From Patescibacteria group bacterium (GTDB lineage Bacteria; Patescibacteriota; Patescibacteriia; SG8-24; DYFX01), in assembly GCA_041659045.1 (NCBI GenBank), contig JBAZZB010000001.1:454111-518110 (forward strand): a stretch of DNA of 64,000 nucleotides, in the 5' to 3' direction. The position numbers were made by a program, and so were the translations under genes. Under the pieces are notes generated by a model. That model was given only the letters and a program-made list of their open reading frames with translations, did no database searches and was not told the DNA's origin. Below, piece after piece: positions 15,175-29,770 of this stretch; position 1 is the first letter of the stretch, and the number at the start of each line of letters is the position of its first letter.

Positions 15175-16031
15175 AAGTAGGATTCGTCGCCCTCGTCGGG
15201 CGCTCCAACACCGGAAAATCGACGCTCGTGAACGCGCTTGTCGGAACCAAGGTCGCCATCACGACGCCGAAACCGCAAACCACGCGCCAAGCCATTCAAG
15301 GCGTCCTCCACGGCGAGGAAGGCCAGATTATTTTTGTCGACACGCCAGGCATCTTCCGCAAGCGCCGCGACCTCATGACGTCGCACATGAACCAGGCCGT
15401 CAAAGGTGCTCTGGAGGGCGTTGACGTCGTGCTCTACGTCGTCGACCCAACCCGCGCGATCGGTGAAGAAGAAGAGGATATTTTGAAACTCTTGAAGAAC
15501 GTCGCGGCACCAAGGCTCCTGATCATCAACAAAATCGACGCCTTGAAAACGCCGTATATCGACGACTTCCGAGCGCTGTCGCAGGATTTCGACGGTGTCG
15601 TTGAAATTTCCGCGCTCAGGGGCACTCATCTTAAAGCGCTGCTCAAAGCGATCTACGACCGCTTGCCGGAAGGCGAAGCGATCTATCCCGAACATCAAAT
15701 CACCAACGTCGACAGCAAGACGTGGTACGGCGAGCTGATCCGCGAGAAGCTCTTCATGTCGCTCTACCAGGAAGTGCCGTACACCACGACTGTCGAAGTC
15801 GACGAGATCGAAGCGCGCCCTTCGAAAAACGGCAAAGAAATGATCTACGTCAAAGCACGCATTTTGACGGACAACGACCAGCACAAGCGCATGATCATCG
15901 GAGCGGGCGGCATCATGATCCGCAAAGTCGGCACGATGGTGCGCAAGGAACTTGAACAAATCCACGGCAAACCAGTCTTCTTGGACCTCGAAGTTGTCAC
16001 CGATCCACATTGGCCCGAGCGTCTCCAGTAG
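15171..16031 (+). CDS. era: GTPase Era
   Basis: GRSNTGKSTL (G1), DTPG (G3), NKID (G4) and a C-terminal KH domain. 4-nt overlap with rlmD. Confidence 0.9.
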   Translation: MKVGFVALVGRSNTGKSTLVNALVGTKVAITTPKPQTTRQAIQGVLHGEEGQIIFVDTPGIFRKRRDLMTSHMNQAVKGALEGVDVVLYVVDPTRAIGEEEEDILKLLKNVAAPRLLIINKIDALKTPYIDDFRALSQDFDGVVEISALRGTHLKALLKAIYDRLPEGEAIYPEHQITNVDSKTWYGELIREKLFMSLYQEVPYTTTVEVDEIEARPSKNGKEMIYVKARILTDNDQHKRMIIGAGGIMIRKVGTMVRKELEQIHGKPVFLDLEVVTDPHWPERLQ

Positions 16032-16047
16032 GTTATACTGGGGGTAT

Positions 16048-16752
16048 ATGGAAGAAAAAATTTCCGATGAATTCGGTTGGCGCATCTTCCGCATCATGGC
16101 GGAGTTCGTCGATGGGTTCCAAATTATCCGTGGTCTGAACAAGACGGTTTCTTTTTTCGGTTCGGCTCGCTTTGGTGAGAATGATCACCATTATAAGGAA
16201 GCTCGCGAACTGGCACAGAAACTTGGTAAAGCAGGTTACACCATTGTCACGGGTGGCGGGCCCGGCATCATGGAGGCAGGCAACCGCGGCGCCATGGACG
16301 TCGGCGCACAATCTGTCGGCTTGAACATTGAATTACCGAAAGAACAGCACCTGAACCCCTATACGACGCGTTCGCAGGGTTTTCATTATTTCTTCACCCG
16401 TAAGGTGATGCTTTCGTACGCAGCACAGGCGTATGTCTATTTCCCTGGAGGATTCGGAACCCTCGACGAGCTTTTGGAGCTTGTCGTGCTCATTCAAACA
16501 AAAAAAATCGATCCGCTTCCGGTCGTTCTCGTTGGTAAGGACTTTTGGAGTCCTTTCATGAAGTGGATCGAGGAGCACGTCTATAAAAACCACCAGGCGA
16601 TCGACAAAGAAGACATGTCGATCTACCACCTCGCCCACGATGTCGATGACGCGTTTTCGATTATTGAAAGAACACTCCTGTGCCCTCCGAACGCGAGCAA
16701 ATGCTGGTATGGATACCAGCCACACCACGTCAGGGGCGCGAAACAGAAGTGA
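16048..16752 (+). CDS. LOG family protein (TIGR00730 Rossmann-fold nucleotide-binding; cytokinin riboside 5'-monophosphate phosphoribohydrolase-like)
   Basis: GGGPGIMEAGNRGA and PGGFGTLDEL motifs. Start set at ATG 16048 (MEEKISDEF). Unusual C-terminal tail. Confidence 0.7.
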   Translation: MEEKISDEFGWRIFRIMAEFVDGFQIIRGLNKTVSFFGSARFGENDHHYKEARELAQKLGKAGYTIVTGGGPGIMEAGNRGAMDVGAQSVGLNIELPKEQHLNPYTTRSQGFHYFFTRKVMLSYAAQAYVYFPGGFGTLDELLELVVLIQTKKIDPLPVVLVGKDFWSPFMKWIEEHVYKNHQAIDKEDMSIYHLAHDVDDAFSIIERTLLCPPNASKCWYGYQPHHVRGAKQK

Positions 16753-17557
16753 TCTCGTACCCGATCTCGTTCCAGCGCACGGATGCCGGCTCAAGCGCCT
16801 TGAGTGCAGGTTGGGCGGCTGGGTGCACGACAACCTTCAAGATCAACGGGTGCTCCGGATTGTCGAGTACGAACAGGTCGGCAAACCAGCTCGTGGCACG
16901 GACAACGCGCACGAACGTTAAACGACCATCCACAAGAAGCGGGAACGTATCGGACGTTCCCGTTTTTTGCAGTTGAAACGGCGAAGCGATCGCGCTTGAA
17001 GTTGAAGAGCCCGCATACGTCACCGCGAGAGCATTGAATGTCTGGAAAGCACGAGAAACGGCGGAGAGCGTTTGCTCTGCCAAGCCGAGTCGCCATTCGA
17101 CCTTGCCGTTATCATGGAGTGAAGCGAATGCCGAACGCGTCATCCACAACCCTCCGTTGTGACGCGCTTCGCCTGTACCCACCGGCCAAAAGGCTGGCAA
17201 GAGCATCGCTTGCGCGTCCTCGAAAAAGACGAGCGCGAGCGTGCCAGTCGCGGAGGCGGTTTTCCATTCCAACGCAGCGAACGTCTCTGGCGCCGCCTCG
17301 CGTACCGTCACGTGAAGCGCACGGCTTTCATCGCCAAAGACCTCATCAACGGCACCTGTCACACCCAAGGTTGAAGGTCGAACCGTTAGCGTGAGACCGG
17401 ATTCGAAATGAATCGAGCGCGCGGCCGCGCTTGCGTCACTGGACGGGGCACCAAACCACGGCAGTCTGGCAAGCGCCGTCTGAAGTTTTTCGATAGGCTC
17501 ACAGCCCGCGCCAAGCAGCACAAGCGCAGCTGATGCAAAAAACAAAGAGGCTTTCAT
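16730..17557 (-). CDS. Hypothetical lipoprotein
   Basis: Lipobox LLGAGC after a signal peptide. No other recognisable motifs. Confidence 0.5.
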   Translation of the reverse strand: MKASLFFASAALVLLGAGCEPIEKLQTALARLPWFGAPSSDASAAARSIHFESGLTLTVRPSTLGVTGAVDEVFGDESRALHVTVREAAPETFAALEWKTASATGTLALVFFEDAQAMLLPAFWPVGTGEARHNGGLWMTRSAFASLHDNGKVEWRLGLAEQTLSAVSRAFQTFNALAVTYAGSSTSSAIASPFQLQKTGTSDTFPLLVDGRLTFVRVVRATSWFADLFVLDNPEHPLILKVVVHPAAQPALKALEPASVRWNEIGYEITSVSRP

Positions 17558-19163: not shown

Positions 19164-19217
19164 GCTCGGAGTGTAGCACACCGCCCAAAAAGGAAAACCC
19201 GCCGTTACGGCAGGTAC

Positions 19218-20669
19218 CTATTCGACACGTCGCGAGATGTCGTCGATGGCTTTGAGTACGCGCTTCTCGGTTTCACGCACCGAGGCACCACTCTGCAAAT
19301 CATGGAAGGCATCACTCACGTTCCGTCGGCTGGAACGAATGGCCTTTTGCACTTTCAAGCGAAGTCTTCTGACAGAACCGAGGAGATAGAGGATAACCAG
19401 AGACAGTACGGTCGTAGCGACACCGGCGGCAAACGGCACCCAGAAGCCTTGGGGCGCGGTTCGCTCCGTACGCTGCTCGACAACCTTCGGTGCTTCCATC
19501 ACGACCATTGGCGTAACTTTCGGCATCGCAGGCGCCTCAGTCACCGTAAACGGAACCATCGCCTCGCGAGAATGGCCAGCCCGATCAAAAGCTCTGACGG
19601 ACAGCGTGTGCGTGCCTGCCGAAAGTTGCGACACCTCATAGGTTGACGTCGCGGTGCCAAACCATTCAACGGACTGCCCTCCGTCAATGCGCACCTCGTA
19701 TCGGGCAATACCAGAGCCACGATCCGTCGCATCAAACAGGAAACGCGCGGCGTCCGACGGTTGAGCTCTCTGAATTTCGTGAATTTCGAAATGTTCCGGA
19801 TCTTCCGTATCGATCTGAACGCGATAATGCGTTGTCGCACCCCACTCCCCACCTTTTCTAAATTGCGCGTGGAAATACCACACACCGTCCTCCAAATCCT
19901 TCACCGTTCTTGAAGCAATGGCTGGCGTGTAACTTACTGTCGGTGAGGCATTTGGAATAACCCCGACGAGCAAACGCACAGCATCAACGCCGGTCGGCAC
20001 CGACCAGGCAAAAGCCGCATCTCGTGACGCATACCACGCATCAGAATCAGGATGCGTACTGGAAACAATTCTTGGCGCCGGCACACTGTTACCCGTCGGC
20101 ACTTCTGGCGCAGTTGTGCCCACGAGCGTAAAACTCGCGCCGAGGAGTCCGGAGGCAACTTCCGTTCCTTGGCCGTCATTGGCCAATACGGACCCTGTCG
20201 AGAAAGACGCTTTCGCCGTACCTTCAGACTTCACGCGAAAGGAAACGGATAAAAGTTTCCCGCTGGACCCTTGAAAGCCAGGATTCAACACAATACCCTC
20301 GAAACCAATCGTTCCGGCCGTGTTTGAAAAGCTTGGATCTTGAATCCAAAGCCCAAAAACAGAACCACTTTTTGAAAGCGATACGACTTCAAGTTTGTCC
20401 GGTGGAAAGATGATACCTCCTGATGCGGCGTTGACCGCGCGATCCGTGCTCGAGACGTAGACGTTTACTGTAAAGGCGCTGCCGACAGCGTGAGAGCCAG
20501 ACGACGGCGAAAGGTACAGAGACGCCGCCTCGGCAGAGGCTGGCACCGCAACAAAAAACAAAATCGCCACCGCGATAGCTCGCGTTTTTTGAAAAAATGA
20601 GCGATACGTTTTGCCGTGGTTTACGACAAACGTATCAAAAAAACGTCGTCTCAAGTTCATTGCGTTCAA
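19218..20669 (-). CDS. Cohesin-like domain cell-surface protein with C-terminal TM anchor
   Basis: Signal peptide, cohesin-like beta-sandwich segment (LYLSPSSGSHAVGSAFTVNVYVSS...GIIFPPDKLEVVSL), Ig-like middle and a C-terminal hydrophobic helix plus basic tail. Paralog of the next gene. Confidence 0.55.
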   Translation of the reverse strand: MNAMNLRRRFFDTFVVNHGKTYRSFFQKTRAIAVAILFFVAVPASAEAASLYLSPSSGSHAVGSAFTVNVYVSSTDRAVNAASGGIIFPPDKLEVVSLSKSGSVFGLWIQDPSFSNTAGTIGFEGIVLNPGFQGSSGKLLSVSFRVKSEGTAKASFSTGSVLANDGQGTEVASGLLGASFTLVGTTAPEVPTGNSVPAPRIVSSTHPDSDAWYASRDAAFAWSVPTGVDAVRLLVGVIPNASPTVSYTPAIASRTVKDLEDGVWYFHAQFRKGGEWGATTHYRVQIDTEDPEHFEIHEIQRAQPSDAARFLFDATDRGSGIARYEVRIDGGQSVEWFGTATSTYEVSQLSAGTHTLSVRAFDRAGHSREAMVPFTVTEAPAMPKVTPMVVMEAPKVVEQRTERTAPQGFWVPFAAGVATTVLSLVILYLLGSVRRLRLKVQKAIRSSRRNVSDAFHDLQSGASVRETEKRVLKAIDDISRRVE

Positions 20670-20676
20670 CAGGTTC

Positions 20677-21558
20677 TTACGAACCTTGTTTCCTCCGGGA
20701 AAGCACGCGAGAGAGAGTTCGACCGAGCAAGAACCCTATCAACACCATCATAGCAAGCGTCGCGTATTTTTGGTATGACGACTGCTTCTTTGCCGCGAAC
20801 ACCGTTGCAACGCGCGCATGCCCTTTCTTATCGACGGCCTTAACAGAAATATCCTCGTTCACGTTTTGGTTTTGCAAAAGATACGGACTTTCGGCTGTCA
20901 CGTACGCTCCTCCACCTTCGCGCACTTCATAATGATCAATTCCGGAGGCCTTGTCTTGCGTCGCGAAAACTAGGAAGTACTTGCCCTCAAACATGTTCGG
21001 ATCGCGAGACACGACCGGAACAAACGTTTCAGGCGCGTCAAGATCGGCTTTCTCGTACGTGACATCGCCTTCACCCACAACCTGCTCCGCGACCTCAAGA
21101 ATCAGCGGCCGCGCGTTCGCGCTTGCCTGCGTTCCTTTTCCGTCGTGAAGCAAGATTTGCTCTTCTTGCACCTGGAAAAACGCCACACCAGCACGTAGAG
21201 GACGCACGACAACGGAAAAAAGAAAACTTTTTTCCCCAACGTGACCTCCAGGAATAATGCCGGAGAATGCAATTTTTCCGGTACCAGCCTGAGGTCGTTG
21301 TATCCAAAATGTTACTGTTGAATTGCCGTCTCGTATAGCCTCAACATCAAAAGACTCCGCTGGAAAAACAAGCGTTCCCTCAACAGCGTTCACGTCTTCG
21401 TTTTCCGTATCAAGAAACACGTCAACGACATACGAACTTCCGACATGAAATGGCGCGGTTTCAGTTTCTGCAAAAATACTCGCCGCAGAAACCGCGCCCG
21501 CGCGCATAAGGAACATCGTCGCAAGCAATGTCAGTGAAATTTTTTTGAAAAGCTGCAT
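20677..21558 (-). CDS. Cohesin-like domain cell-surface protein with C-terminal TM anchor (paralog)
   Basis: Signal peptide, then the same cohesin-like pattern (HVGSSYVVDVFLDTENEDVNAVEGTLVFPAESFDVEAI) and a C-terminal TM plus basic tail. Confidence 0.55.
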   Translation of the reverse strand: MQLFKKISLTLLATMFLMRAGAVSAASIFAETETAPFHVGSSYVVDVFLDTENEDVNAVEGTLVFPAESFDVEAIRDGNSTVTFWIQRPQAGTGKIAFSGIIPGGHVGEKSFLFSVVVRPLRAGVAFFQVQEEQILLHDGKGTQASANARPLILEVAEQVVGEGDVTYEKADLDAPETFVPVVSRDPNMFEGKYFLVFATQDKASGIDHYEVREGGGAYVTAESPYLLQNQNVNEDISVKAVDKKGHARVATVFAAKKQSSYQKYATLAMMVLIGFLLGRTLSRVLSRRKQGS

Positions 21559-21566
21559 ACGACAGA

Positions 21567-22619
21567 TTAGCCAGACCAGTGATACGCCATAATACTAAAG
21601 TCGACAAGGTTCACTTTCCCGTCGCCATTCAATTGTTCTTTCTCAACCACTCGGAATTCAGCAGAAAGCTCGCGCTGATACCAATACGCAACGATCGAGA
21701 AGTCGACAAGGTTCACCTTCCCATCGCCGTTTACGTCGCCCTTCACACCAACAACATCAGGCAGCGCCGTCACGTTCTTCGTTCCAACGACGAATCCTAC
21801 AGTTTTTCCGAACGGGCTCGCCTCCTCCTCCAACGCCGACTTTGCTTGCGTACTATGTGATCCGGCTTCAAGCACGGCCGTATTGAGCGTGTACAAATAC
21901 GCGCCCGTGGCATCGGCATTCACGCTGTAAAAAAGTTCGTTCTCGGAATTCACCGCAAGTGTCACTTCACTATTCGGCGCAGTCCGCCCAAAAATAGCAA
22001 TGTTGTCTCCGCGTTTTACCTCGCTTTTATCTGCAGAGATCGTCGGTGCGATAAAAATTCCACTTACTCTCGTTGTGGCGCCATTCGTAATGTAAACCGG
22101 GAAACTAAACAATGCAGAATGCAGGCCGGTCGCATCTTCACCATAAATACCGAAGGCATAATTCCCCGTCGCCAAACCCGTCAGGCTCACCTCAAAACGG
22201 GCGTCTGGACCAGCAATGGTTGAAACGGCAACCTGACCATCCTTTAAGACAACAACCTTGCTCAACGGATATGCCCTGCCTGAAAAGGTTACCTGCGTAA
22301 CGACGGGAACCGTCGTAGCTCCTCCCCCACCCCCACCTGTTGCACCACCGCCCACGCTCCCGCTTGATGTCGTGCAAAGCGATGTATCAAACGAACAAGA
22401 GGGATCGCATGATAGCGTACCTCCGCCGAATCCCTGCGACTGGCACGATTGTCCGTTGAGATCAGTGACGTCGCACTCTTCATCCCACTCGGTAATCGTA
22501 TTCCCGCAGACGGAAATACGGATTCTCGCTGAGATGGTCGAGGCAGAGGTAACTACCGGAAAAACCACCAGCCACACAGCAAAAATAAGCGCGGAAAATC
22601 TCGCCAAGACACGGCTCAT
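21567..22619 (-). CDS. Dockerin-containing secreted protein
   Basis: C-terminal duplicated type-I dockerin calcium-binding segments GDVNGDGKVNLVDFSIVAYWYQ and LNGDGKVNLVDFSIMAYHW. The N-terminal region has a signal peptide, a Cys-rich segment, a poly-Gly linker and Ig-like beta domains. Confidence 0.7.
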   Translation of the reverse strand: MSRVLARFSALIFAVWLVVFPVVTSASTISARIRISVCGNTITEWDEECDVTDLNGQSCQSQGFGGGTLSCDPSCSFDTSLCTTSSGSVGGGATGGGGGGATTVPVVTQVTFSGRAYPLSKVVVLKDGQVAVSTIAGPDARFEVSLTGLATGNYAFGIYGEDATGLHSALFSFPVYITNGATTRVSGIFIAPTISADKSEVKRGDNIAIFGRTAPNSEVTLAVNSENELFYSVNADATGAYLYTLNTAVLEAGSHSTQAKSALEEEASPFGKTVGFVVGTKNVTALPDVVGVKGDVNGDGKVNLVDFSIVAYWYQRELSAEFRVVEKEQLNGDGKVNLVDFSIMAYHWSG

Positions 22620-23239
22620 GATTTCCTCGAAATTGCGAATTCCAATTTGAAGAATTTCTTAAACGCCGCCGCGAGGAGCACGAACCCAATGAATCCGAAT
22701 ACGATGTACGTCCAAGGCCTATAGCGCGCGATCAAGCTTGTGATGCGATAAAATACCGCCTGAAAGATATTTGAGGGCGCAACCGTGAAGTAGAATTTCG
22801 AAGCAGCAGCAACACCGATACTGGCACCGCCCGTCGTGCGAGCTTTCCTCAAAGGGCGCGCTTCAAGAAACGCATAATACTCGCCCGGTTTGGCGTTCAA
22901 AGGCACGCGGAGCGTCATGGTGACCGGCTGAACCTTTCCAGGCTCAAGACTGAACGTCCGCGGCGTAAACGTCACCCAATCGCGACCCGGACGAAGCTGA
23001 GGAACGTTTTCCTGATACTCGATAAAAGCTTCGTACTCCGTAAGTTCATCACCCGTGTTGATTACGGGCAGAGTCGGAAGATCGTAAATCGTTCCAGGCT
23101 TGAGGGGTTCTTCTAGGATGACTTTTCCGAGCCCCACGCCGACTCCAACATTCGCAAAAACAGCGAGTGGGAACGCGAGCGCGGCTACGACCGCCAAGGC
23201 AGCTTTTCGGACAAAAATTTTCCGCATACCAACCTTCAC
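22616..23239 (-). CDS. Hypothetical surface protein with signal peptide and C-terminal TM anchor
   Basis: Signal peptide AALAVVAALAFPLAVFA, a beta-rich middle and a C-terminal helix FGFIGFVLLAAAF plus KKFFK tail. 4-nt overlap with the dockerin gene. Confidence 0.5.
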   Translation of the reverse strand: MKVGMRKIFVRKAALAVVAALAFPLAVFANVGVGVGLGKVILEEPLKPGTIYDLPTLPVINTGDELTEYEAFIEYQENVPQLRPGRDWVTFTPRTFSLEPGKVQPVTMTLRVPLNAKPGEYYAFLEARPLRKARTTGGASIGVAAASKFYFTVAPSNIFQAVFYRITSLIARYRPWTYIVFGFIGFVLLAAAFKKFFKLEFAISRKS

Positions 23240-23254
23240 GGTGAAGTACTCGAA

Positions 23255-23773
23255 TCAGGATGCTGTCGCGGTAACAACAACGTCGACACTTTGCTGTGTG
23301 TAATCTGCAGTTGCCGTTGGAGTCGTAAGAGTCAGGTCGAAACGTGTCGCCGCACCTACGGCCACGTCCGCAACCAAAGCGGTATTCCCCGTGGTCAAAG
23401 CCGTGTAGTTTGTCGGGTTGGATTCACAGGCCGTGAGGCAGAAGGAATGCCTGTACGTTTCTGAACTCGAAGTCGCCCCCAGCGTCCAGCTAGCGGAATC
23501 CGTGCCGGAAATGAAAAAATCTTCGACAACGTTGCCGGTGTTCGTCGCGCTTTGCGTGTCCCACATACCCACTGAAGTCGAGCGTGCAGTGCTCAGACTC
23601 AACGATCCATAGGCAATGCTAGCGTCAGCAGCTGTCAGCGCCACGTTCGTAACCGTGACAGTCGCTGCTACTGTTGCCGCCTGAACCGTCATCGTTGAAA
23701 ACGCCATCAACGAGGAGAACAAAAAGACCGCTGCCATCCAACTCCATCCCACTCTTGTTAGAGTCAAACGCAT
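23255..23773 (-). CDS. Small secreted protein, paralog of the C-terminal module of the giant glycine-rich protein (WxL-like)
   Basis: Start set at MRLTLTRVGWSWMAAVFLFSSLMAFS (signal peptide). The rest aligns nearly residue-for-residue with the last roughly 170 aa of the 1425-aa protein (GMWDTQSATNTGNV..DF.I.GT..A.WTLGAT). The similarity is also visible at nucleotide level. Confidence 0.6.
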   Translation of the reverse strand: MRLTLTRVGWSWMAAVFLFSSLMAFSTMTVQAATVAATVTVTNVALTAADASIAYGSLSLSTARSTSVGMWDTQSATNTGNVVEDFFISGTDSASWTLGATSSSETYRHSFCLTACESNPTNYTALTTGNTALVADVAVGAATRFDLTLTTPTATADYTQQSVDVVVTATAS

Positions 23774-23867
23774 ACGTCTAAGAAAAACATTCGGCCATTT
23801 ATAACTTGCCTCTATGATACCACGATCTTCAAGCGACCGATTGCGAAGATATCCCCAGTTTTCAGCC

Positions 23868-26800
23868 CTAATGCTGTGTCGCAGTGATGACGACGTCGAC
23901 GCTTTGTTGCGTATTGTATGAGGTCGATGTCGGCGTCGAAATATTGAGATCAAAGAGCTGCGCGGCGTCTACGGCGACGTTCGTTACCATCGACGTCTCC
24001 CCCGTCGTCAACGCCGTATAGTTGGTCGGTGCGGTCGTACAGCTCGCCGTGCAGAACGCATGCGCATACTGCTCGCTGCTTGGTGTCGCGCCGAGCGTCC
24101 AGTTAGCCGTGTTCGTTCCGCGAATGGTGAAATCCTCAGCAACGTTTCCGGTATTTGTCGCGCTTTGCGTGTCCCACATACCCGTTGATGTCGAGCGTGT
24201 CTCGCTGGTACCCATGATTCCATAAGCGACCGTGCCATCTCCAACAGTCACCGCGACAATCGTCGCCGGATTGATGGTGATCTGTCCTGATGAGTAGGCG
24301 CTTACGGGAGAGTTTTCACCATCATCGACGACACCGTACACGTAATAGCTTCCTGTCGTGACCCCTGTCGTGTCCCAAGCGCACGTCACACCTGTTCCTT
24401 CAGCGGCGGTGGCACACGGGCCGCTGATCACCGTACCGTCGAGACCGGAGTTATTGGTATCGTAATAGAAAGCCGCCGTCACAACATCATCGGAGTCAGC
24501 CAGGGTATACGTCACGTTGTAGGAATCTCCGACGGTAACGGTGTCGCTTGTGCCATCCGGTTGTGAAACCGAAATCGTTGGCGCAGCGTTGCCTGAAGCG
24601 ACATACGAAAGTTTCACTTTTCCATCAGCGCCGGCACCACCGATCGTACATGTCGATGTCGATGCGGATTCTCCGCCTCCACCTCCACCTCCACCGCTTC
24701 CGCTCGCTGGTGCGTTTCCGTTCGTGGCAATAGCGGACGCGCCATCTCCGCCAATACCTCCGCCCGAGGGGGCCGCCGCTGCCGTTGCTGTCGTCCAGGT
24801 CGTCGCGCCACTCGTACCATTCGCCGCAATGCCGGCGCTTGAACCGCCAGGTCCGCCGTAACCATTCGTGTTGTTGTAACCAACCCCTCCGTCACCGCCG
24901 GATGCGATGTAACTTGGCTCACTCACGCCTCCACTCGACGCACCGCCGCTTCCACCGGCCGGCGGCGTACCCGTTGAGTTTGCGCCGCCCGCGCCGCCTT
25001 TTGCCATCACGGTTGAGGCATCGACAAAATAGCTGTCCTCCCCAGATAATCCAGAAAGACAGGTGCCGCCGAGCCCGCCTCCTCCCGCCACGACGGTGTA
25101 GGTATTTCCAGCAGTGACTGCAACGGTGTTTTTGGAATATCCGCCGCCACCTCCACCACCACCTCCGTCGGAAATAATGCGCTGCTGTCCGCCACCACCA
25201 CCACCGCCGCCCCACACTTCAACATCAACAGACGTCACACCTGTGGGCGCCGTCCATGTGTAGACATAGGTGATTCGTACACGACCAACATAACCGTCTC
25301 CGCCTTTAACAGTGGCGCCTTCGGCCGCGCCGCCGCCGCCGCCGCCAGGACCAATATCCGGAGCCAAACCGTCCGTCGTTCCTGACGTAGCTGTGCCATA
25401 CCCTCCAGGACCACCACCAACGACAGCTACCGCACCAGTCGGTGCCGTGCTCGCATTCGTACCGGCACTCCCCGTACCTGCCGCACTGCCTCCACCTCCA
25501 CCAGCACCCGTCGCGCTGTTCGTACCAGCTCTACCGTTGCCGCCAGTGTAGGTCGTGTCGCCAACACTGGAACCGCCGGCGCCACCTGCGCCACCTGATC
25601 CTCCAGTGCCAGAGCCTCCGCTTCCCACATTTGGATTGCCGCCACTTCCGCCTTTTGCCATTACTGTCGAGGCGTCAATAAAATAGCTGTCTCCGCCAGC
25701 ATTACCGGCGCTTGAGGCGACGCCTGTTCCACCAGCACCAACAACAACGGTGTAGTCATTTCCAGGTGTGACGGAAATATTGGATTTCTTTGCGTAAGCA
25801 CCGCCTCCGCCGCCTCCGCCGCCATCATTCGCGGAGTCATTGTTACCGCCGCCGGCTCCGCCACCACCCCACGCCTCGACGTTCACGGCCGTGACGCCTG
25901 CAGGAGCCGTCCATGTTGCGGAACTCGTATAAACAACCGAACCCGTCGCATACGTATCAACCGTATCCGAAGAATCCGCAATATATGTGATAGCGACTTT
26001 TCCATCAGCGCCTTGACCTCCAATCGAACACGTTGTTGTTGAAAGCGCATCGGCTGCGCCGCCACCGCCGCCGCCAGAACCAAAATTACTCAAAGGCGGA
26101 TCCCCCGGCACACCGTCTGCGTCGCCGCCGTCACCGCCAATACCGCCCCCGTGCGGCGGTTTTGAAGCGTCGTCAATTGCCCATGTTGTGGGTCCATTCG
26201 TACCGTTTGCTGCCACGCCCGCGCTTGAGCCGCCAGGGCCGCCTCTGCCATCAGTAGCATTACTGCCCTTACCTCCGTTACCGCCGGAAAATTTTGTATC
26301 ACCAACGCCGGAAGCTGCCGCGCCACCAGCACCACCAGAACCTGGTGTGCCCGTAGAGTTCGGGCCGCCACTACCACCCTTCGCCATCACGGTCGATGTA
26401 TCGATAAAATAACTGTCGTCTCCAGCTACGCCAGTGATACATGTGCCTCCAAGACCACCAGCACCAACACCGACCGCATACGTGTTACCTGGAGTGACTG
26501 AAATGCTAGTTTTTTTGGAATATCCTCCGCCGCCGCCTCCACCTCCGCCGTCGGAAACAATGCGCTGTTGTCCACCGCCACCTCCGCCTCCGCCCCACAC
26601 TTCAACATCAACAGACGTCACGCCCGTCGGTGCCGTCCAGGTATAGATATAGGTAATGCGTACGCGACCAGGCGCACCGTCGCCACCTTGAGCAGTTGCT
26701 CCTTCGCCACTACCTCCGCCTCCGCCGCCAGGACCAATGTCAGGGGCAAGGCCGTTTCCGGCAACCGTAAATCCGTAGCCACCAGGACCACCACCAACCA

Positions 26801-28145
26801 CCGCAGTCGCGCCGGTCACTGTCGCAGCCGTGCCGTTGTTGCCGGCACTTGTCGTTCCCGCACCGCCACCACCTCCTCCTCCAATACCTGTCGTACTGTT
26901 TCTTCCCGCGCCACCAGTACCGCCCGAATACGTAACATCACCAACACTCGAACCACTGGCTCCTCCTGTTCCAGCAGTGCCGGCATCTCCAGTAGACGCT
27001 CCGCCCCCACCGCCACCCTTCGCCATGACCGTCGAAGAATCGATAAAATAGCTGTCGCCACCGGCGTTCCCGGCGCTTGAAGCCACGCCCGTACCTCCCG
27101 CGCCAACGACAACGGTATAGCCGTTTCCCGGTGTAACGGAGATATTCGATTTCTTCGCATACGCACCACCGCCGCCGCCACCACCACTGTCCGCGGAGGC
27201 TTGTGTGTTACCGCCACCTGCGCCACCAGCGCCCCACGCCTCGACGTTCACGGCCGTAACGCCGGTCGGAGCCGTCCATGTCGTCGAACTCGTATAGACA
27301 ACGGAGCCCGTCGTATATCTTTCTTCATAACCGCCCGTAGGTCGAAAACGAACCGCTCCAAGATCTACAGCGAAATCATCTGTTCCGTTTTTTGTTGCCG
27401 TACCGGCCGTGCCATCAGCATTCTCGACACCTTGCGTGTAATAGCTTCCCGGCGAGTTCAGCACGACGACCTCCGAATGTACTTCGATAATACTTGTTGC
27501 TTCGTACATCTGCACCTGCGTCGTCACGCGCGGAATACCTTCCTCGCAGCACTGTGCGAGATCCAAAAAATCCACGACAAAGACGCGATTTGGCGTTGAG
27601 CCAAACGTCTGATACCGAATCTGCGAACCGTTTGAGGAACTCGCGTACAAGTCGGCCCACACGGCGGCGATCAGCGCATTTGGCGTGGCTGCGTCTGGAA
27701 TCACTTGCGTGTTCGTGGAGCTGCCAGGGGTGTCGCCCGTAAAACTGACAAAGCCGTTGGAACTGATCCAGACCGAATCGTAATCGGTACCGTAAAAGGT
27801 AAATGTGAACGGCAGCGTAATCTCGCTGGAAAATTCGTTATCAAATGTTCCAGACGTATCAAACGCCGCAGTCGCTCCCCCATCAAGCGTGTAGGGATCG
27901 TAGGCGATGGTTGATGATTGATAGAAAATCTCAGCCGAGGCTTTCGCTTCGCGTACGTTTGGAAAAAACGGATTGTGACCGAGCCGCGGCCAATCAGAAA
28001 AAATCCAGCTGGTCATGATTGTCAAAACCAGCAGGAAGCGTGACACCTTGGCGGCCTTCTTACATCCAGACCAAAAAACACGCCTACACCAAGCAGCGCG
28101 GCGCGCGACAGAATCCATGTCGATGCGGATGGTCAACGTGCGCAT
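23868..28145 (-). CDS. Giant (1425 aa) glycine-rich repeat cell-surface protein
   Basis: N-terminal TM/signal and a beta domain with PFTFTFYGTDYDSVWISSNGFVSF. Then four repeats of TWTAPxGVTxVxVExWG(G)n...VTPGNxYxVxVGAGG...SYFIDxSTVMAKGG(G)n, organised as two near-identical roughly 467-aa super-repeats. Then an Ig-like domain and a C-terminal module with an NWTL motif. The exact start is uncertain. Confidence 0.75.
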   Translation of the reverse strand: MRTLTIRIDMDSVARRAAWCRRVFWSGCKKAAKVSRFLLVLTIMTSWIFSDWPRLGHNPFFPNVREAKASAEIFYQSSTIAYDPYTLDGGATAAFDTSGTFDNEFSSEITLPFTFTFYGTDYDSVWISSNGFVSFTGDTPGSSTNTQVIPDAATPNALIAAVWADLYASSSNGSQIRYQTFGSTPNRVFVVDFLDLAQCCEEGIPRVTTQVQMYEATSIIEVHSEVVVLNSPGSYYTQGVENADGTAGTATKNGTDDFAVDLGAVRFRPTGGYEERYTTGSVVYTSSTTWTAPTGVTAVNVEAWGAGGAGGGNTQASADSGGGGGGGAYAKKSNISVTPGNGYTVVVGAGGTGVASSAGNAGGDSYFIDSSTVMAKGGGGGGASTGDAGTAGTGGASGSSVGDVTYSGGTGGAGRNSTTGIGGGGGGGAGTTSAGNNGTAATVTGATAVVGGGPGGYGFTVAGNGLAPDIGPGGGGGGSGEGATAQGGDGAPGRVRITYIYTWTAPTGVTSVDVEVWGGGGGGGGQQRIVSDGGGGGGGGGYSKKTSISVTPGNTYAVGVGAGGLGGTCITGVAGDDSYFIDTSTVMAKGGSGGPNSTGTPGSGGAGGAAASGVGDTKFSGGNGGKGSNATDGRGGPGGSSAGVAANGTNGPTTWAIDDASKPPHGGGIGGDGGDADGVPGDPPLSNFGSGGGGGGAADALSTTTCSIGGQGADGKVAITYIADSSDTVDTYATGSVVYTSSATWTAPAGVTAVNVEAWGGGGAGGGNNDSANDGGGGGGGGAYAKKSNISVTPGNDYTVVVGAGGTGVASSAGNAGGDSYFIDASTVMAKGGSGGNPNVGSGGSGTGGSGGAGGAGGSSVGDTTYTGGNGRAGTNSATGAGGGGGSAAGTGSAGTNASTAPTGAVAVVGGGPGGYGTATSGTTDGLAPDIGPGGGGGGAAEGATVKGGDGYVGRVRITYVYTWTAPTGVTSVDVEVWGGGGGGGGQQRIISDGGGGGGGGGYSKNTVAVTAGNTYTVVAGGGGLGGTCLSGLSGEDSYFVDASTVMAKGGAGGANSTGTPPAGGSGGASSGGVSEPSYIASGGDGGVGYNNTNGYGGPGGSSAGIAANGTSGATTWTTATAAAAPSGGGIGGDGASAIATNGNAPASGSGGGGGGGGESASTSTCTIGGAGADGKVKLSYVASGNAAPTISVSQPDGTSDTVTVGDSYNVTYTLADSDDVVTAAFYYDTNNSGLDGTVISGPCATAAEGTGVTCAWDTTGVTTGSYYVYGVVDDGENSPVSAYSSGQITINPATIVAVTVGDGTVAYGIMGTSETRSTSTGMWDTQSATNTGNVAEDFTIRGTNTANWTLGATPSSEQYAHAFCTASCTTAPTNYTALTTGETSMVTNVAVDAAQLFDLNISTPTSTSYNTQQSVDVVITATQH

Positions 28146-28217
28146 AGGGTCCGATGCGCTTTCGCGGATAACGACCCAAGTATAACACGACCACGGACTC
28201 TCGTACTGTCCCCAAGG

Positions 28218-28817
28218 TTACTGACGAACGTAAGGTGCCAGCTCAGCCGTCACGATAAAACGCTTAAAGGCCGTACCGAGCGGATAGGAAGTTTGCAGCG
28301 TCAAAGTTTTCTTCACGCCATCGCCTTGGGACAACACGCTGAGGTCCTTCGGGGAAACAACTTTCGTGCCCGTTACGACGTACAAAAACGGCGTACCGGA
28401 AGCATTCGTCACCTCGATTTCTTCACCAACGCGAATCGACATGAGCTTCGCGAACACATCTTTGTATGAACCCGGACTCCACACGTAATCGCTGGAGTGA
28501 CCAAAAAAGTAGGCGTTGCCAACTTGTCCCGGCATCGCCGTTCCCGGAAAATGCACGACACCTTTTTCGAGCGCTTGCTGAAAAGATTTCTCGTTACGCG
28601 CCGCTGGCTCGATGACAGGCGCATCGATTCCGAGTCCAGGGATCGCCAAACGCACCGCCAACGTTGAAGAAGACGAGGCGGCAACCGTTTCAATCATAAG
28701 CGTGGCGGAGTCGGGACGATCTCCGTCAACGCGTGCGCGAATCGATGGCCAAGCCATGATAAACACGGACGCGACAAGCGCGATGAAAGGCAGAAGTATA
28801 TGGGCGTGGCGGCGCAT
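28218..28817 (-). CDS. Sortase-fold protein with Ser in place of the catalytic Cys
   Basis: N-terminal TM. LAIPGLGIDAPVIE, HFPGTAMPGQVGNAYFFGHSS (the His motif) and KRFIVTAEL (Arg motif) align with SrtA. The TLxTC motif reads LTLQTSYP, with codon TCC at 28287-28289. The protein contains no Cys at all. Confidence 0.65.
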   Translation of the reverse strand: MRRHAHILLPFIALVASVFIMAWPSIRARVDGDRPDSATLMIETVAASSSSTLAVRLAIPGLGIDAPVIEPAARNEKSFQQALEKGVVHFPGTAMPGQVGNAYFFGHSSDYVWSPGSYKDVFAKLMSIRVGEEIEVTNASGTPFLYVVTGTKVVSPKDLSVLSQGDGVKKTLTLQTSYPLGTAFKRFIVTAELAPYVRQ

Positions 28818-28858
28818 AAGACGTAAACACGCCGGCAGGTGCCGGCGTGCCTATGATA

Positions 28859-29581
28859 TCAAGAACGTTTACGGAGCGACAGGACGACACCGAACGTCAT
28901 CACGACAAGTGCCATCGGAAGCGAAGCGCCTCCGGTGCGCGGAAGCTCGTCAACCGTGTTCGTGTCTCCACCAGGAGGCGTGGTACCGCCGTCCGGAGGC
29001 GTGAGCGGATTGCAGCCGGGGCTAAGCGGATCGCACGTCGCGACATCAGGAGGCGTGATCGGAGCACAATCGGGGCTTCCAACCGGGCAGCTCGGCGGCG
29101 CCGGAGGTTCACAGCTCGTCATGTTGCAGCCACCAGGCGGCGGGGTCGTCGGACCGTCGCAGCCCTGCGAGCATTCCGGAGTTGCAATCGCAACGTCGTC
29201 ATACGTAACAACGCAGGTTGCGGAACCGTTTTCAGCCAAGGTGCCGGAGCAGCCCGGACCGTAAAAACGAGCGTAGTACGGCTGGTGCGATCCCTGAACA
29301 GCGTAGTTGCCCGGGGATACGGCCATCGTGATACCCGGTGCGCCAAAACCAGCCCACGTCGAGAGGGTGGTCATGCCGTCGCCGTAGGTCATAAGAAAGT
29401 TTGCCGGCAAGGCAATACCTCCGTCATCATTGATGACGTTCGTCACAACGTTGATCGTGGCTTGGCTGTTGCCGCCACCGCCCGGACCGGGGCCGGTCGG
29501 GTTATACGAGGCCGCCTGAACGCGGGCAGCGCTCGTAAGAAGCGCCGTCGCAAAGACAAGCGCGAGAAGTGTTTTTCGCAT
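28859..29581 (-). CDS. Secreted Pro/Gly/Cys-rich protein with C-terminal LPRTG sorting signal
   Basis: Signal peptide MRKTLLALVFATALLTSAARVQA. C-terminus ELPRTGGASLPMALVVMTFGVVLSLRKRS, which is LPXTG plus a hydrophobic stretch plus a basic tail. Confidence 0.65.
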   Translation of the reverse strand: MRKTLLALVFATALLTSAARVQAASYNPTGPGPGGGGNSQATINVVTNVINDDGGIALPANFLMTYGDGMTTLSTWAGFGAPGITMAVSPGNYAVQGSHQPYYARFYGPGCSGTLAENGSATCVVTYDDVAIATPECSQGCDGPTTPPPGGCNMTSCEPPAPPSCPVGSPDCAPITPPDVATCDPLSPGCNPLTPPDGGTTPPGGDTNTVDELPRTGGASLPMALVVMTFGVVLSLRKRS

Positions 29582-29657
29582 AGTTGCGTAAAGAATATGC
29601 GAGGAGGATAGCTAAAAACGGCGCGCACGTCAAGGCAGCTATCACCACCTCTTCTTA

Positions 29658-29696: not shown

Positions 29697-29770
29697 TCGG
29701 GGATCGTCTAATGGTAGGACAACAGACTCTGAATCTGTTTATCTTGGTTCGAATCCAGGTCCCCGAGCCA
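29697..29770 (+). tRNA. tRNA-Gln (anticodon CTG)
   Basis: Hand-folded cloverleaf: acceptor TCGGGGA/TCCCCGA, D-arm GTCT/GGAC, anticodon arm ACAGA/TCTGT with loop CTCTGAA, T-arm CTTGG/CCAGG with loop TTCGAAT, discriminator G and an encoded CCA. Confidence 0.85.

Follow-up and report, generated by a model that had tools for sequence, protein, structure and literature searches.

A conserved six-gene operon of candidate phyla radiation bacteria as a putative non-covalent surface fibre or display system, and its neighbouring pair of genes for a sortase homologue and an LPRTG protein

Bacteria of the candidate phyla radiation (CPR; Patescibacteria) account for much of the diversity of bacteria and lead a host-attached life, and their surface machinery is for the most part unannotated. 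Here, we analysed a 64,000-nucleotide stretch of DNA (referred to as the window) from a Patescibacteria group bacterium (GenBank assembly GCA_041659045.1, contig JBAZZB010000001.1, positions 454,111 to 518,110 of the forward strand), in which eight co-directional open reading frames (ORFs) on the minus strand, numbered from w8 down to w1 as they are transcribed, fill positions 19218 to 29581 with gaps of −4 to ~95 bp in the ORF listing. On comparative grounds, this block consists of two independent neighbouring units. The first of these, w6 to w1 (19218–28145), is a widespread and unannotated CPR surface system, and we lean, by a modest degree, toward reading it as a membrane-anchored fibre or display complex on the cell surface, whose immunoglobulin (Ig)-like modules would be held together non-covalently by β-strand complementation. 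The second is w8 and w7, which encode an LPRTG protein and a sortase homologue. The original prediction, made from the window sequence alone, had joined all eight genes into one surface locus; in fact, all eight ORFs for exported or anchored proteins are present and the gaps between them are tiny or negative, but that interpretation as a whole is partly supported, in that only the six genes w6 to w1 are syntenic across CPR genomes, and the genes for the sortase and the LPRTG protein belong to a pair of their own.

A scan of the GTDB species-representative genomes with a w4 profile gave 133 relatives, and 79 loci were kept. ORFs were called in 85 loci and searched with family hidden Markov models (HMMs), where M stands for the module (w6 being ‘big M’ and w5 ‘small M’), w4 is denoted C, the dockerin protein (w3) D, and the cohesin protein (w2 and w1) E. 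Most of the 85 loci, from ~80 CPR species, follow the order bigM-smallM-C-D-E(-E) with gaps mostly of 0–100 bp, and the dominant arrangements are bigM-smallM-C-D-E (21 loci) and bigM-smallM-C-D-E-E (17 loci), the latter being exactly the pattern of w6 to w1; copies at contig ends are truncated. Because the same order is found in ~80 other genomes, this gene block lies far beyond chance. By record title, its carriers belong to Parcubacteria/Paceibacterota, Microgenomates lineages, WWE3, WS6, Magasanikbacteria, Uhrbacteria, and Komeilibacteria, and include the cultivated archaeal parasite Ca. Microsyncoccus archaeolyticus (locus L012). About 15 loci with a complete CPR operon (e.g., L014, L020, L021, L043, and L060) are titled uncultured Gammaproteobacteria, Pseudomonadales, or Bdellovibrionales; these metagenome-assembled genomes are probably mislabelled bins, and a restriction to CPR is not strictly proven.

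Within the operon, the D and E genes are adjacent wherever they occur. However, ~8 loci (including L010, L015, L018, L027, L034, and L042) have the order smallM-bigM-C followed by a different fourth gene and no D or E. This gene encodes a conserved protein of ~170–200 residues that has a signal peptide, contains the sequence VTINPLEVDV as well as a CARDB-like Ig domain, and carries FDFFQGLF at its C-terminus. Since these loci carry M-M-C without D and E, we regard M-M-C as the invariant core. Separately, in L082 (1655–14356) the first four genes (M706-M171-C204-D) are tandemly duplicated ahead of a complete operon.

The two M proteins share one domain. Small M (w5; 23255–23773, minus strand) consists of a signal peptide, a 12-residue N-terminal strand, and an Ig-like β-sandwich of ~130 residues. 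Its start is likelier to be the ATG at 23773 (172 residues) than that of the 232-residue ORF, and the NCBI annotation places it 12 codons further in, at 23737. Big M (w6; 23868–28145, minus strand) is a 1425-residue protein with an N-terminal signal or transmembrane (TM) segment, a variable region, and a C-terminal module (23871–24293; residues ~1285–1425) that reaches its extreme C-terminus. The repetition of the small secreted module at the end of this glycine-rich protein, already remarked upon from the sequence, is borne out by an alignment of the mature part of w5 with the last ~140 residues of w6, which gave 58% identity over 153 residues (E 4e-50). The same goes for the SWTL/NWTL motif said to be common to both modules, as Trp96 and Leu98 of the W-T-L sequence are invariant in 73 module-family members, where a CxxxC pair and surface motifs are conserved too. 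Moreover, the module ends 0–3 residues from the C-terminus in all proteins, and in the large ones it is always C-terminal. As for the extent of the family, w5 has 86 word-indexed homologues, and an exhaustive profile search returned 1763 representatives of 50% identity clusters, 929 of them at E ≤ 1e-10. Matches of the w5 and w4 families that are named by source are all CPR, and exact or near-exact database matches assign the window to a metagenome-assembled CPR genome. No precomputed Pfam domain was found on proteins of the w5 or w4 families, and a Pfam profile search with w5 gave no match.

In the AlphaFold2 (AF2) monomer of w5, the domain is a single β-sandwich of ~130 residues that is predicted with confidence (predicted local distance difference test score, pLDDT, of 85), with the N-terminal 12 residues modelled as coil (pLDDT ~60). 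This extension (ATVAATVTVTNV; 23642–23677, minus strand) is the candidate donor strand. Its family consensus, TATVAATVTVQN, starts right at the signal-peptidase site and alternates small hydrophobic and polar residues over five turns of β-strand. Conservation peaks in two segments of w5, namely the extension and the C-terminal strand, with a mean top-residue frequency of 0.83 and 0.85, respectively, versus 0.72 for the domain. Here, the small and large proteins part ways. Identity to TATVAATVTVQN averages 8.1 of 12 positions in small M, and where it falls under 8 of 12 the VxATVT core is still present, whereas the large M average is 1.6 of 12, with 58 of 62 proteins at or below 4 of 12; w6 itself lacks a donor-like strand at its N-terminus.

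A Foldseek search of w5 against the protein data bank (PDB) found no significant match (all E ≥ 0.02). Its weak top list (probability 0.7–0.94) consists mostly of donor-strand subunits, namely CfaB, PapA, FimA, PapE, CsuA/B, a TasA-like TLP, the Saci_0406 thread of Sulfolobus, and the bundling pilus ABP of Pyrobaculum. Nothing meaningful emerged from a PDB sequence search with the w5 and w4 family profiles. We took as noise a match to ‘Enas’ (endospore appendage) in 2 of the 73 module proteins (E 0.043). Still, the likeness to chaperone-usher pili (Fim, Pap, Csu, and CFA/I) goes beyond the presence of their pilins at the top of the Foldseek list, and extends to a pilin-like Ig module, an N-terminal extension of alternating hydrophobicity, a module at the free C-terminus, a two-part, tip-like protein without an extension, and a PapD-like partner. 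There are differences as well, since the host is monoderm, the similarity is weak and at fold level only, and w4 is a single-domain TM-anchored protein as opposed to a soluble two-domain PapD chaperone. Moreover, no usher-like gene was found in the operon, be it that of the window or those of the 85 loci, whose conserved genes are all M, C, D, or E.

What the large M proteins carry in front of the module varies widely between loci. In w6, there are four Gly_rich_2 domains (E 8e-56) within a four-fold internal repeat of the gene (24970–27302), where the DNA repeats are 64–81% identical with a super-period of ~1383 nt, and this suggests an expansion by recent duplication. Tandem Repeats Finder reported nothing in w6, these repeats being too long and too divergent for that program. 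Elsewhere, the cargo domains include Peptidase_S8 subtilases (8 of 59 proteins), DUF7483, Gly_rich_2, and ConA-like lectin domains, along with ribosome-inactivating-protein (RIP) domains in two loci. The cargo domains of the large M proteins (L006–L084) are possible host-directed effectors.

The D protein (w3; 21567–22619, minus strand) has 350 residues. Its signal peptide is followed by an N-terminal strand, after which a six-Cys domain and Big_6/Big_7 Ig domains lead up to a C-terminal type-I dockerin (nt 21588–21743; residues 293–344). The dockerin with its duplicated repeat, as read from the sequence, stands: w3 matches Dockerin_1 at 29.1 bits (cutoff 22.9) with two repeats, besides a match to Big_6, and Dockerin_1 is matched by 44 of 60 D-family members (best E 6.5e-11). 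The N-terminal domain of the D family has six invariant cysteines and is weakly DUF4215-like, and the mature N-terminus reads tVxATvKISV-CGN, with the same V-x-A-T-V core as in the small M extension. The two E proteins are w2 (20677–21558, minus strand; 293 residues), with a signal peptide, a cohesin-like domain, an Ig-like domain, and a C-terminal TM anchor, and w1 (19218–20669, minus strand; 483 residues), with a signal/TM segment, a cohesin-like domain, Ig-like domains, a C-terminal TM helix, and a cytoplasmic tail. That these are two paralogous, anchored cohesin-like proteins holds for their paralogy, the BLASTP matches between them being 5e-16 for the N-terminal domain and 6e-8 for the Ig-like domain, and for the family, as both align with the E family, in which 34 of 60 members match Cohesin (best E 2.5e-12). 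It does not hold for their own profile matches, with w1 reaching E 2e-4 and 22.0 bits, under the gathering cutoff of 24.1, and w2 having no Pfam match of its own.

Because the D and E genes are always adjacent, we infer that they encode a cognate pair, in which the D dockerin would bind the E cohesin. As in non-cellulosomal cohesin–dockerin pairs, the type-I dockerin and cohesin genes stand side by side and the cohesins are membrane-anchored. However, the operon has no glycoside hydrolases or scaffoldin, it carries strand-bearing Ig modules, and its dockerin protein has a six-Cys domain. Two side observations concern the E genes. In L001, L003, and L005, which are of Microgenomates/WS6/WWE3 type, a single cohesin protein (e.g., L001 11691–12755) has its TM helices at the N-terminus, on either side of a CxxC...CxxC zinc-ribbon-like segment, in contrast to the E proteins of the window, which are anchored by a C-terminal TM helix. 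In addition, one stop-to-stop ORF translation of the E set matches 23S_rRNA_IVP/bAvd-like sequences (E 1.9e-37), which probably stems from an adjacent or fused gene.

The remaining conserved gene, w4 (22616–23239, minus strand; 207 residues), encodes a signal peptide and an IGVGVGxGK strand ahead of one Ig domain, behind which come an amphipathic helix and the C-terminal TM helix, and its annotated start differs from that of the window ORF. It is recognizable as the small signal/TM protein of the original prediction. The w4 family counts >562 homologues at ~45–55% identity. While w4 itself gave only sub-threshold Ig-like Pfam matches, its AF2 model (pLDDT 82) has one Ig domain of PapD/ASH/WxLIP-like fold and the C-terminal TM helix, with the conserved IGVGVGxGK N-terminus unstructured. 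PapD_N is matched weakly by 17 of 63 family members (best E 0.004), and some homologues are named PapD chaperones by JGI. This makes w4 a candidate membrane-tethered chaperone or anchor. We also considered w4 as a membrane-anchored paralogue of the module, but ruled this out, as hhalign detected no relationship between the module profile and the w4 profile.

In the assembly that we propose for w6 to w1, large M would act as an acceptor only and sit at the distal position with its variable cargo, and small M, having both a donor strand and an acceptor module, would plug into large M and could form a head-to-tail chain. At the proximal end, D with its N-terminal strand would serve as the cap and dock, by way of its dockerin, onto the membrane cohesin E. 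Here, w4 could be a membrane-tethered PapD-like chaperone or else a second anchor, and neither an usher nor a sortase would take part in the assembly. For the variant that lacks D and E, the CARDB-like product of the fourth gene may do the anchoring. Gene content, synteny, domain types, and the distribution of the strand are observations, and strand exchange, polarity, polymer length, and cohesin–dockerin binding are putative features of this scheme, which would give a role to each conserved gene of the operon and whose logic, by analogy, mirrors that of Pam pili (see below).

Several observations weigh against such an assembly. Enzyme cargo such as subtilases agrees with plain display no less than with a long pilus, and the range of cargo would suit a short stalk equally. 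The ~8 loci without D and E imply that the cohesin–dockerin link is dispensable for the core. The cohesin score of w1 is under the cutoff, and w2 has no cohesin match of its own. Moreover, the N-terminal strand of D could simply open the fold of D's own Cys-rich domain, as its first strand.

Among the alternatives, a static complex of the WxL/Csc type fares best, although we judge it unlikely. In this case, the modules would dock non-covalently via w4, there would be no polymerisation, and the cohesin–dockerin pair would be an extra tether. WxL clusters encode a small WxL protein, a large WxL protein, and a two-domain WxLIP made of DUF916, DUF3324, and a C-terminal TM segment (PMC9772566, PMC10599100). 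The gene logic is the same in the operon, which shares with the clusters of Bacilli a trio consisting of a small protein with nothing but the module, a large one in which variable N-terminal domains precede the module at the C-terminus, and an Ig protein anchored by a TM segment, together with a conserved W-x-L motif. Diverse cargo that includes enzymes suits display, and strand insertion is predicted for WxL systems too, where AF2 has a DUF916 strand insert beside the WxL N-terminus. The sequence comparisons speak against this reading. The window proteins gave no match at E ≤ 1 to WxL (PF13731), DUF916, or DUF3324, an outcome that had been named beforehand as counting against the original prediction. 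These families were also not among the 25 most-matched of the 37 listed for the 73 module-family members, nor among those listed for 63 w4-family members scanned singly, so 136 family members have no such match listed. The w4 profile did not match the sequence of the solved Enterococcus faecium WxLIP (9i1y), and the PDB matches included no solved structure of a WxL domain.

The motif itself also differs. The WxL family has two W-x-L motifs on adjacent strands, with Asp at W1−8, Arg at W1−6, and GTxAG before the first motif (PMC9772566), whereas the module has a single W96-T-L98, with Ile at W−8 and Gly at W−6, and no second motif near its C-terminus. Furthermore, small and large WxL domains are structurally different according to the WxL literature, but the small and large modules of the operon are of the same type. 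The anchor w4 has one Ig domain instead of two, a cohesin–dockerin pair is added, the host is a CPR bacterium and not one of the Firmicutes, and the LPXTG protein that often accompanies WxL/Csc clusters is here a neighbour outside the conserved cluster. A static complex of this kind would moreover leave the donor-like strand, which is limited to small M and D, unexplained. Membership in WxL/Csc is therefore not supported: of the resemblance to csc/WxL clusters seen in the original prediction, the gene layout remains and the profiles, motif number and context, and single Ig domain of w4 do not fit, leaving an organisational analogy.

It is improbable that the operon is instead a divergent Pam system, i.e., the same machine. 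Pam pili of CPR bacteria, described for Ca. [quoted passage not shown] PamC and PamD are TM-anchored PapD/FimC-like chaperones with two β domains, PamR combines terminator and anchor in a single protein that bears a strand at its N-terminus as well as a TM helix, and the 39–55 kDa pilins have a nine-strand N-terminal domain, a linker strand, and a truncated Ig C-terminal domain (bioRxiv 10.64898/2026.03.03.709456). The common ground is considerable, as both systems are apparently specific to CPR (the same superphylum) and comprise Sec-exported, Ig-like subunits whose β-strand is donated (putatively so in the operon), a tip subunit that lacks the strand, a PapD-like protein on a C-terminal TM helix, and a terminator or anchor with an N-terminal strand, all with no usher or sortase. 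However, w5 is a single domain (~130 residues, ~14 kDa) with an N-terminal strand, in contrast to the two-domain Pam pilin with its linker strand, and w4 has one Ig domain in place of the two β domains of PamC and PamD. The putative distal protein bears cargo of great size and diversity. Anchoring is apparently split between a dockerin protein and membrane cohesins, which are absent from the pam operon, where PamR is a single TM protein; cohesin and dockerin are unmentioned in the Pam paper (bioRxiv 10.64898/2026.03.03.709456). Reports of Pam come mainly from Saccharimonadia and Microgenomatia (bioRxiv 10.64898/2026.03.03.709456), and the lineage range of the operon is wider or different, as it is also in Parcubacteria/Paceibacterota, Magasanikbacteria, Uhrbacteria, WWE3, and WS6. 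The two systems are set apart here by the published description of Pam, and PDB sequence and fold searches returned no Pam entry.

An equally improbable reading would have the module as a domain that binds the cell wall or S-layer, similar to SLH or WxL, with the small protein as a spacer or competitor and no strand exchange. The module is invariably C-terminal on diverse secreted enzymes and adhesin-like proteins, and its conserved surface motifs and CxxxC pair would suit such a function. Yet, it matches no known wall-binding family, and the split into strand-plus and strand-minus proteins, the obligatory PapD-like partner, and the pilin-rich fold matches would go unexplained.

Returning to β-strand complementation as the preferred reading, we can offer a more specific version of it only tentatively, with somewhat less than even confidence: the operon would be an undescribed, CPR-wide, usher-less, and sortase-independent donor-strand fibre that is distinct from Pam, with interchangeable tip cargo and a donor-strand dockerin adaptor moored in membrane cohesins. 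If true, this would be the first use of cohesin–dockerin as a pilus anchor. For the six-gene operon, the earlier statement that the architecture is undescribed appears to hold within the limits of the literature that could be searched. Our literature searches on Patescibacteria and Parcubacteria with cohesin/dockerin, donor strand, and chaperone-usher did not find the operon described, and it is unmentioned in the mBio paper on Ca. Microsyncoccus.

The second unit is made up of w8 (28859–29581, minus strand) and w7 (28218–28817, minus strand). Among the 85 operon loci, a sortase is found in two, the window and L061 (where it is divergently oriented), and a homologue of w8 occurs in the window but is absent from the other 84. 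Locus L006, the closest relative, has operon proteins 87–90% identical to those of the window, yet w8 and w7 are absent, with only 167 bp between its tRNA-Gln(CTG) (845–918) and the giant gene downstream. In an alignment of the two, a ~1.4-kb segment with w8 and w7, between the tRNA and the giant gene, is specific to the window. Conversely, L085 and L086 encode sortases that are 83% and 75% identical to w7, with a w8 homologue (...EELPRTGG...RKRS) directly upstream. There, the sortase directly precedes rluB, mutY, a LOG-family gene (Lysine_decarbox/LDcluster4), and era, which is the backbone of the window, and no M-M-C-D-E genes lie between the sortase and rluB. In the more distant L088, a DUF11/CLIPPER protein that ends in DELPRTG is paired with the same kind of sortase. 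Because the pair is absent in L006, present without the operon in L085 and L086, and again paired in L088, w8 and w7 form a conserved unit of their own. Just beyond the tRNA-Gln of L006 (100–660), we also noticed an ORF fragment with the reverse-transcriptase motifs GNLTSQ and YADD of the diversity-generating retroelement (DGR) type; a search for a DGR-type reverse transcriptase in the window and the other loci found no counterpart outside L006.

In this genome, both units may nevertheless be co-transcribed, since a promoter-like site precedes w8 and the best terminator-like hairpin follows w1. The former (29605–29633, minus strand; TTGACG, a 17-nt spacer, and TATCCT) lies ~25 nt upstream of the w8 start and is a consensus match only. 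The hairpin (19197–19215, minus strand), directly past the w1 stop codon, has an 8-bp stem with 6 GC pairs and a T-run, and is likely the end of the transcription unit, being the top-scoring terminator-like site of a region where the total number of such sites is not above shuffle expectation. One integrated eight-gene scaffold, combining sortase anchoring, cohesin–dockerin, and WxL-like modules, would agree with these signals, with the co-directional genes and small gaps, and with the sortase that adjoins the L061 operon, albeit divergently, but is largely refuted by the synteny above and the lack of an LPXTG signal on any operon protein of the window, and we hold it to be very improbable.

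As to the sortase itself, w7 is a homologue by fold, as predicted (Pfam Sortase, 86.4 bits), but it has Ser in place of the catalytic Cys. Aligned to the class C sortase 8t28, its TLQTS falls opposite TLVTC, and while the active-site His and Arg are kept, w7 contains no cysteine at all. In fact, each of the 120 best homologues that have a residue in the catalytic Cys column has Ser there, with His and Arg conserved. The w7 protein itself scored under all class-specific sortase cutoffs. The predicted LPRTG substrate is likewise found in w8, a small secreted protein that ends in DELPRTGG, a hydrophobic stretch, and RKRS. In fold, active-site His and Arg, and an adjacent substrate with LPRTG, hydrophobic, and basic-tail segments, the pair resembles sortase–LPXTG anchoring (class D/E-like), except that the canonical triad is His-Cys-Arg with TLxTC. 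On account of the conserved pairing with (D/E)ELPRTG substrates, w7-type sortases would seem to be working enzymes with a Ser nucleophile rather than pseudoenzymes, and w7 presumably anchors w8 to the cell wall independently of the operon. Our literature search on the question of the catalytic cysteine of sortases in Patescibacteria found no account of a Ser-sortase. The w8 protein has a weak SpaA_2 match. We also considered it as a sortase-polymerised pilin and ruled this out, as the mature protein is lysine-free; this and the sub-cutoff class scores of w7, class C included, distinguish the pair from sortase-assembled Gram-positive pili.

Housekeeping genes flank the block, with rluB-like, mutY-like, and era genes on one side and a tRNA-Gln, a nucleoside deoxyribosyltransferase-like gene, an amidohydrolase gene, and a DEAD helicase gene on the other. 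The tRNA-Gln(CTG) (29697–29770, plus strand) marks the upstream boundary on the w8 side. On the rluB side, a 275-residue protein that lacks a Pfam match and has an N-terminus of signal-peptide or lipoprotein-like type is encoded at 16730–17557 (minus strand), between mutY and the LOG-family gene (15952–16752), which we named after its counterparts in L085 and L086. By a comparison of size only, a gene similar to that of the 275-residue protein also precedes the LOG-family gene in L085 (281 residues) and L086 (276 residues).

For the biology of these bacteria, the operon is of interest as a surface system that occurs in many CPR lineages and has two core proteins with no Pfam family. Its variable cargo, with proteases, lectin-like domains, and RIP toxin domains, provides good candidates for host recognition and attack. 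If strand complementation proves true, the operon would be the second pilus-like CPR system after Pam and the more widespread one, it would give cohesin–dockerin a new role as a membrane anchor, and it would supply a rule for finding tip effectors in CPR genomes, namely proteins that end in the module and lack the strand. Finally, a family of sortases with Ser in place of Cys, conserved alongside LPRTG substrates, challenges the view of sortases as obligate cysteine transpeptidases.

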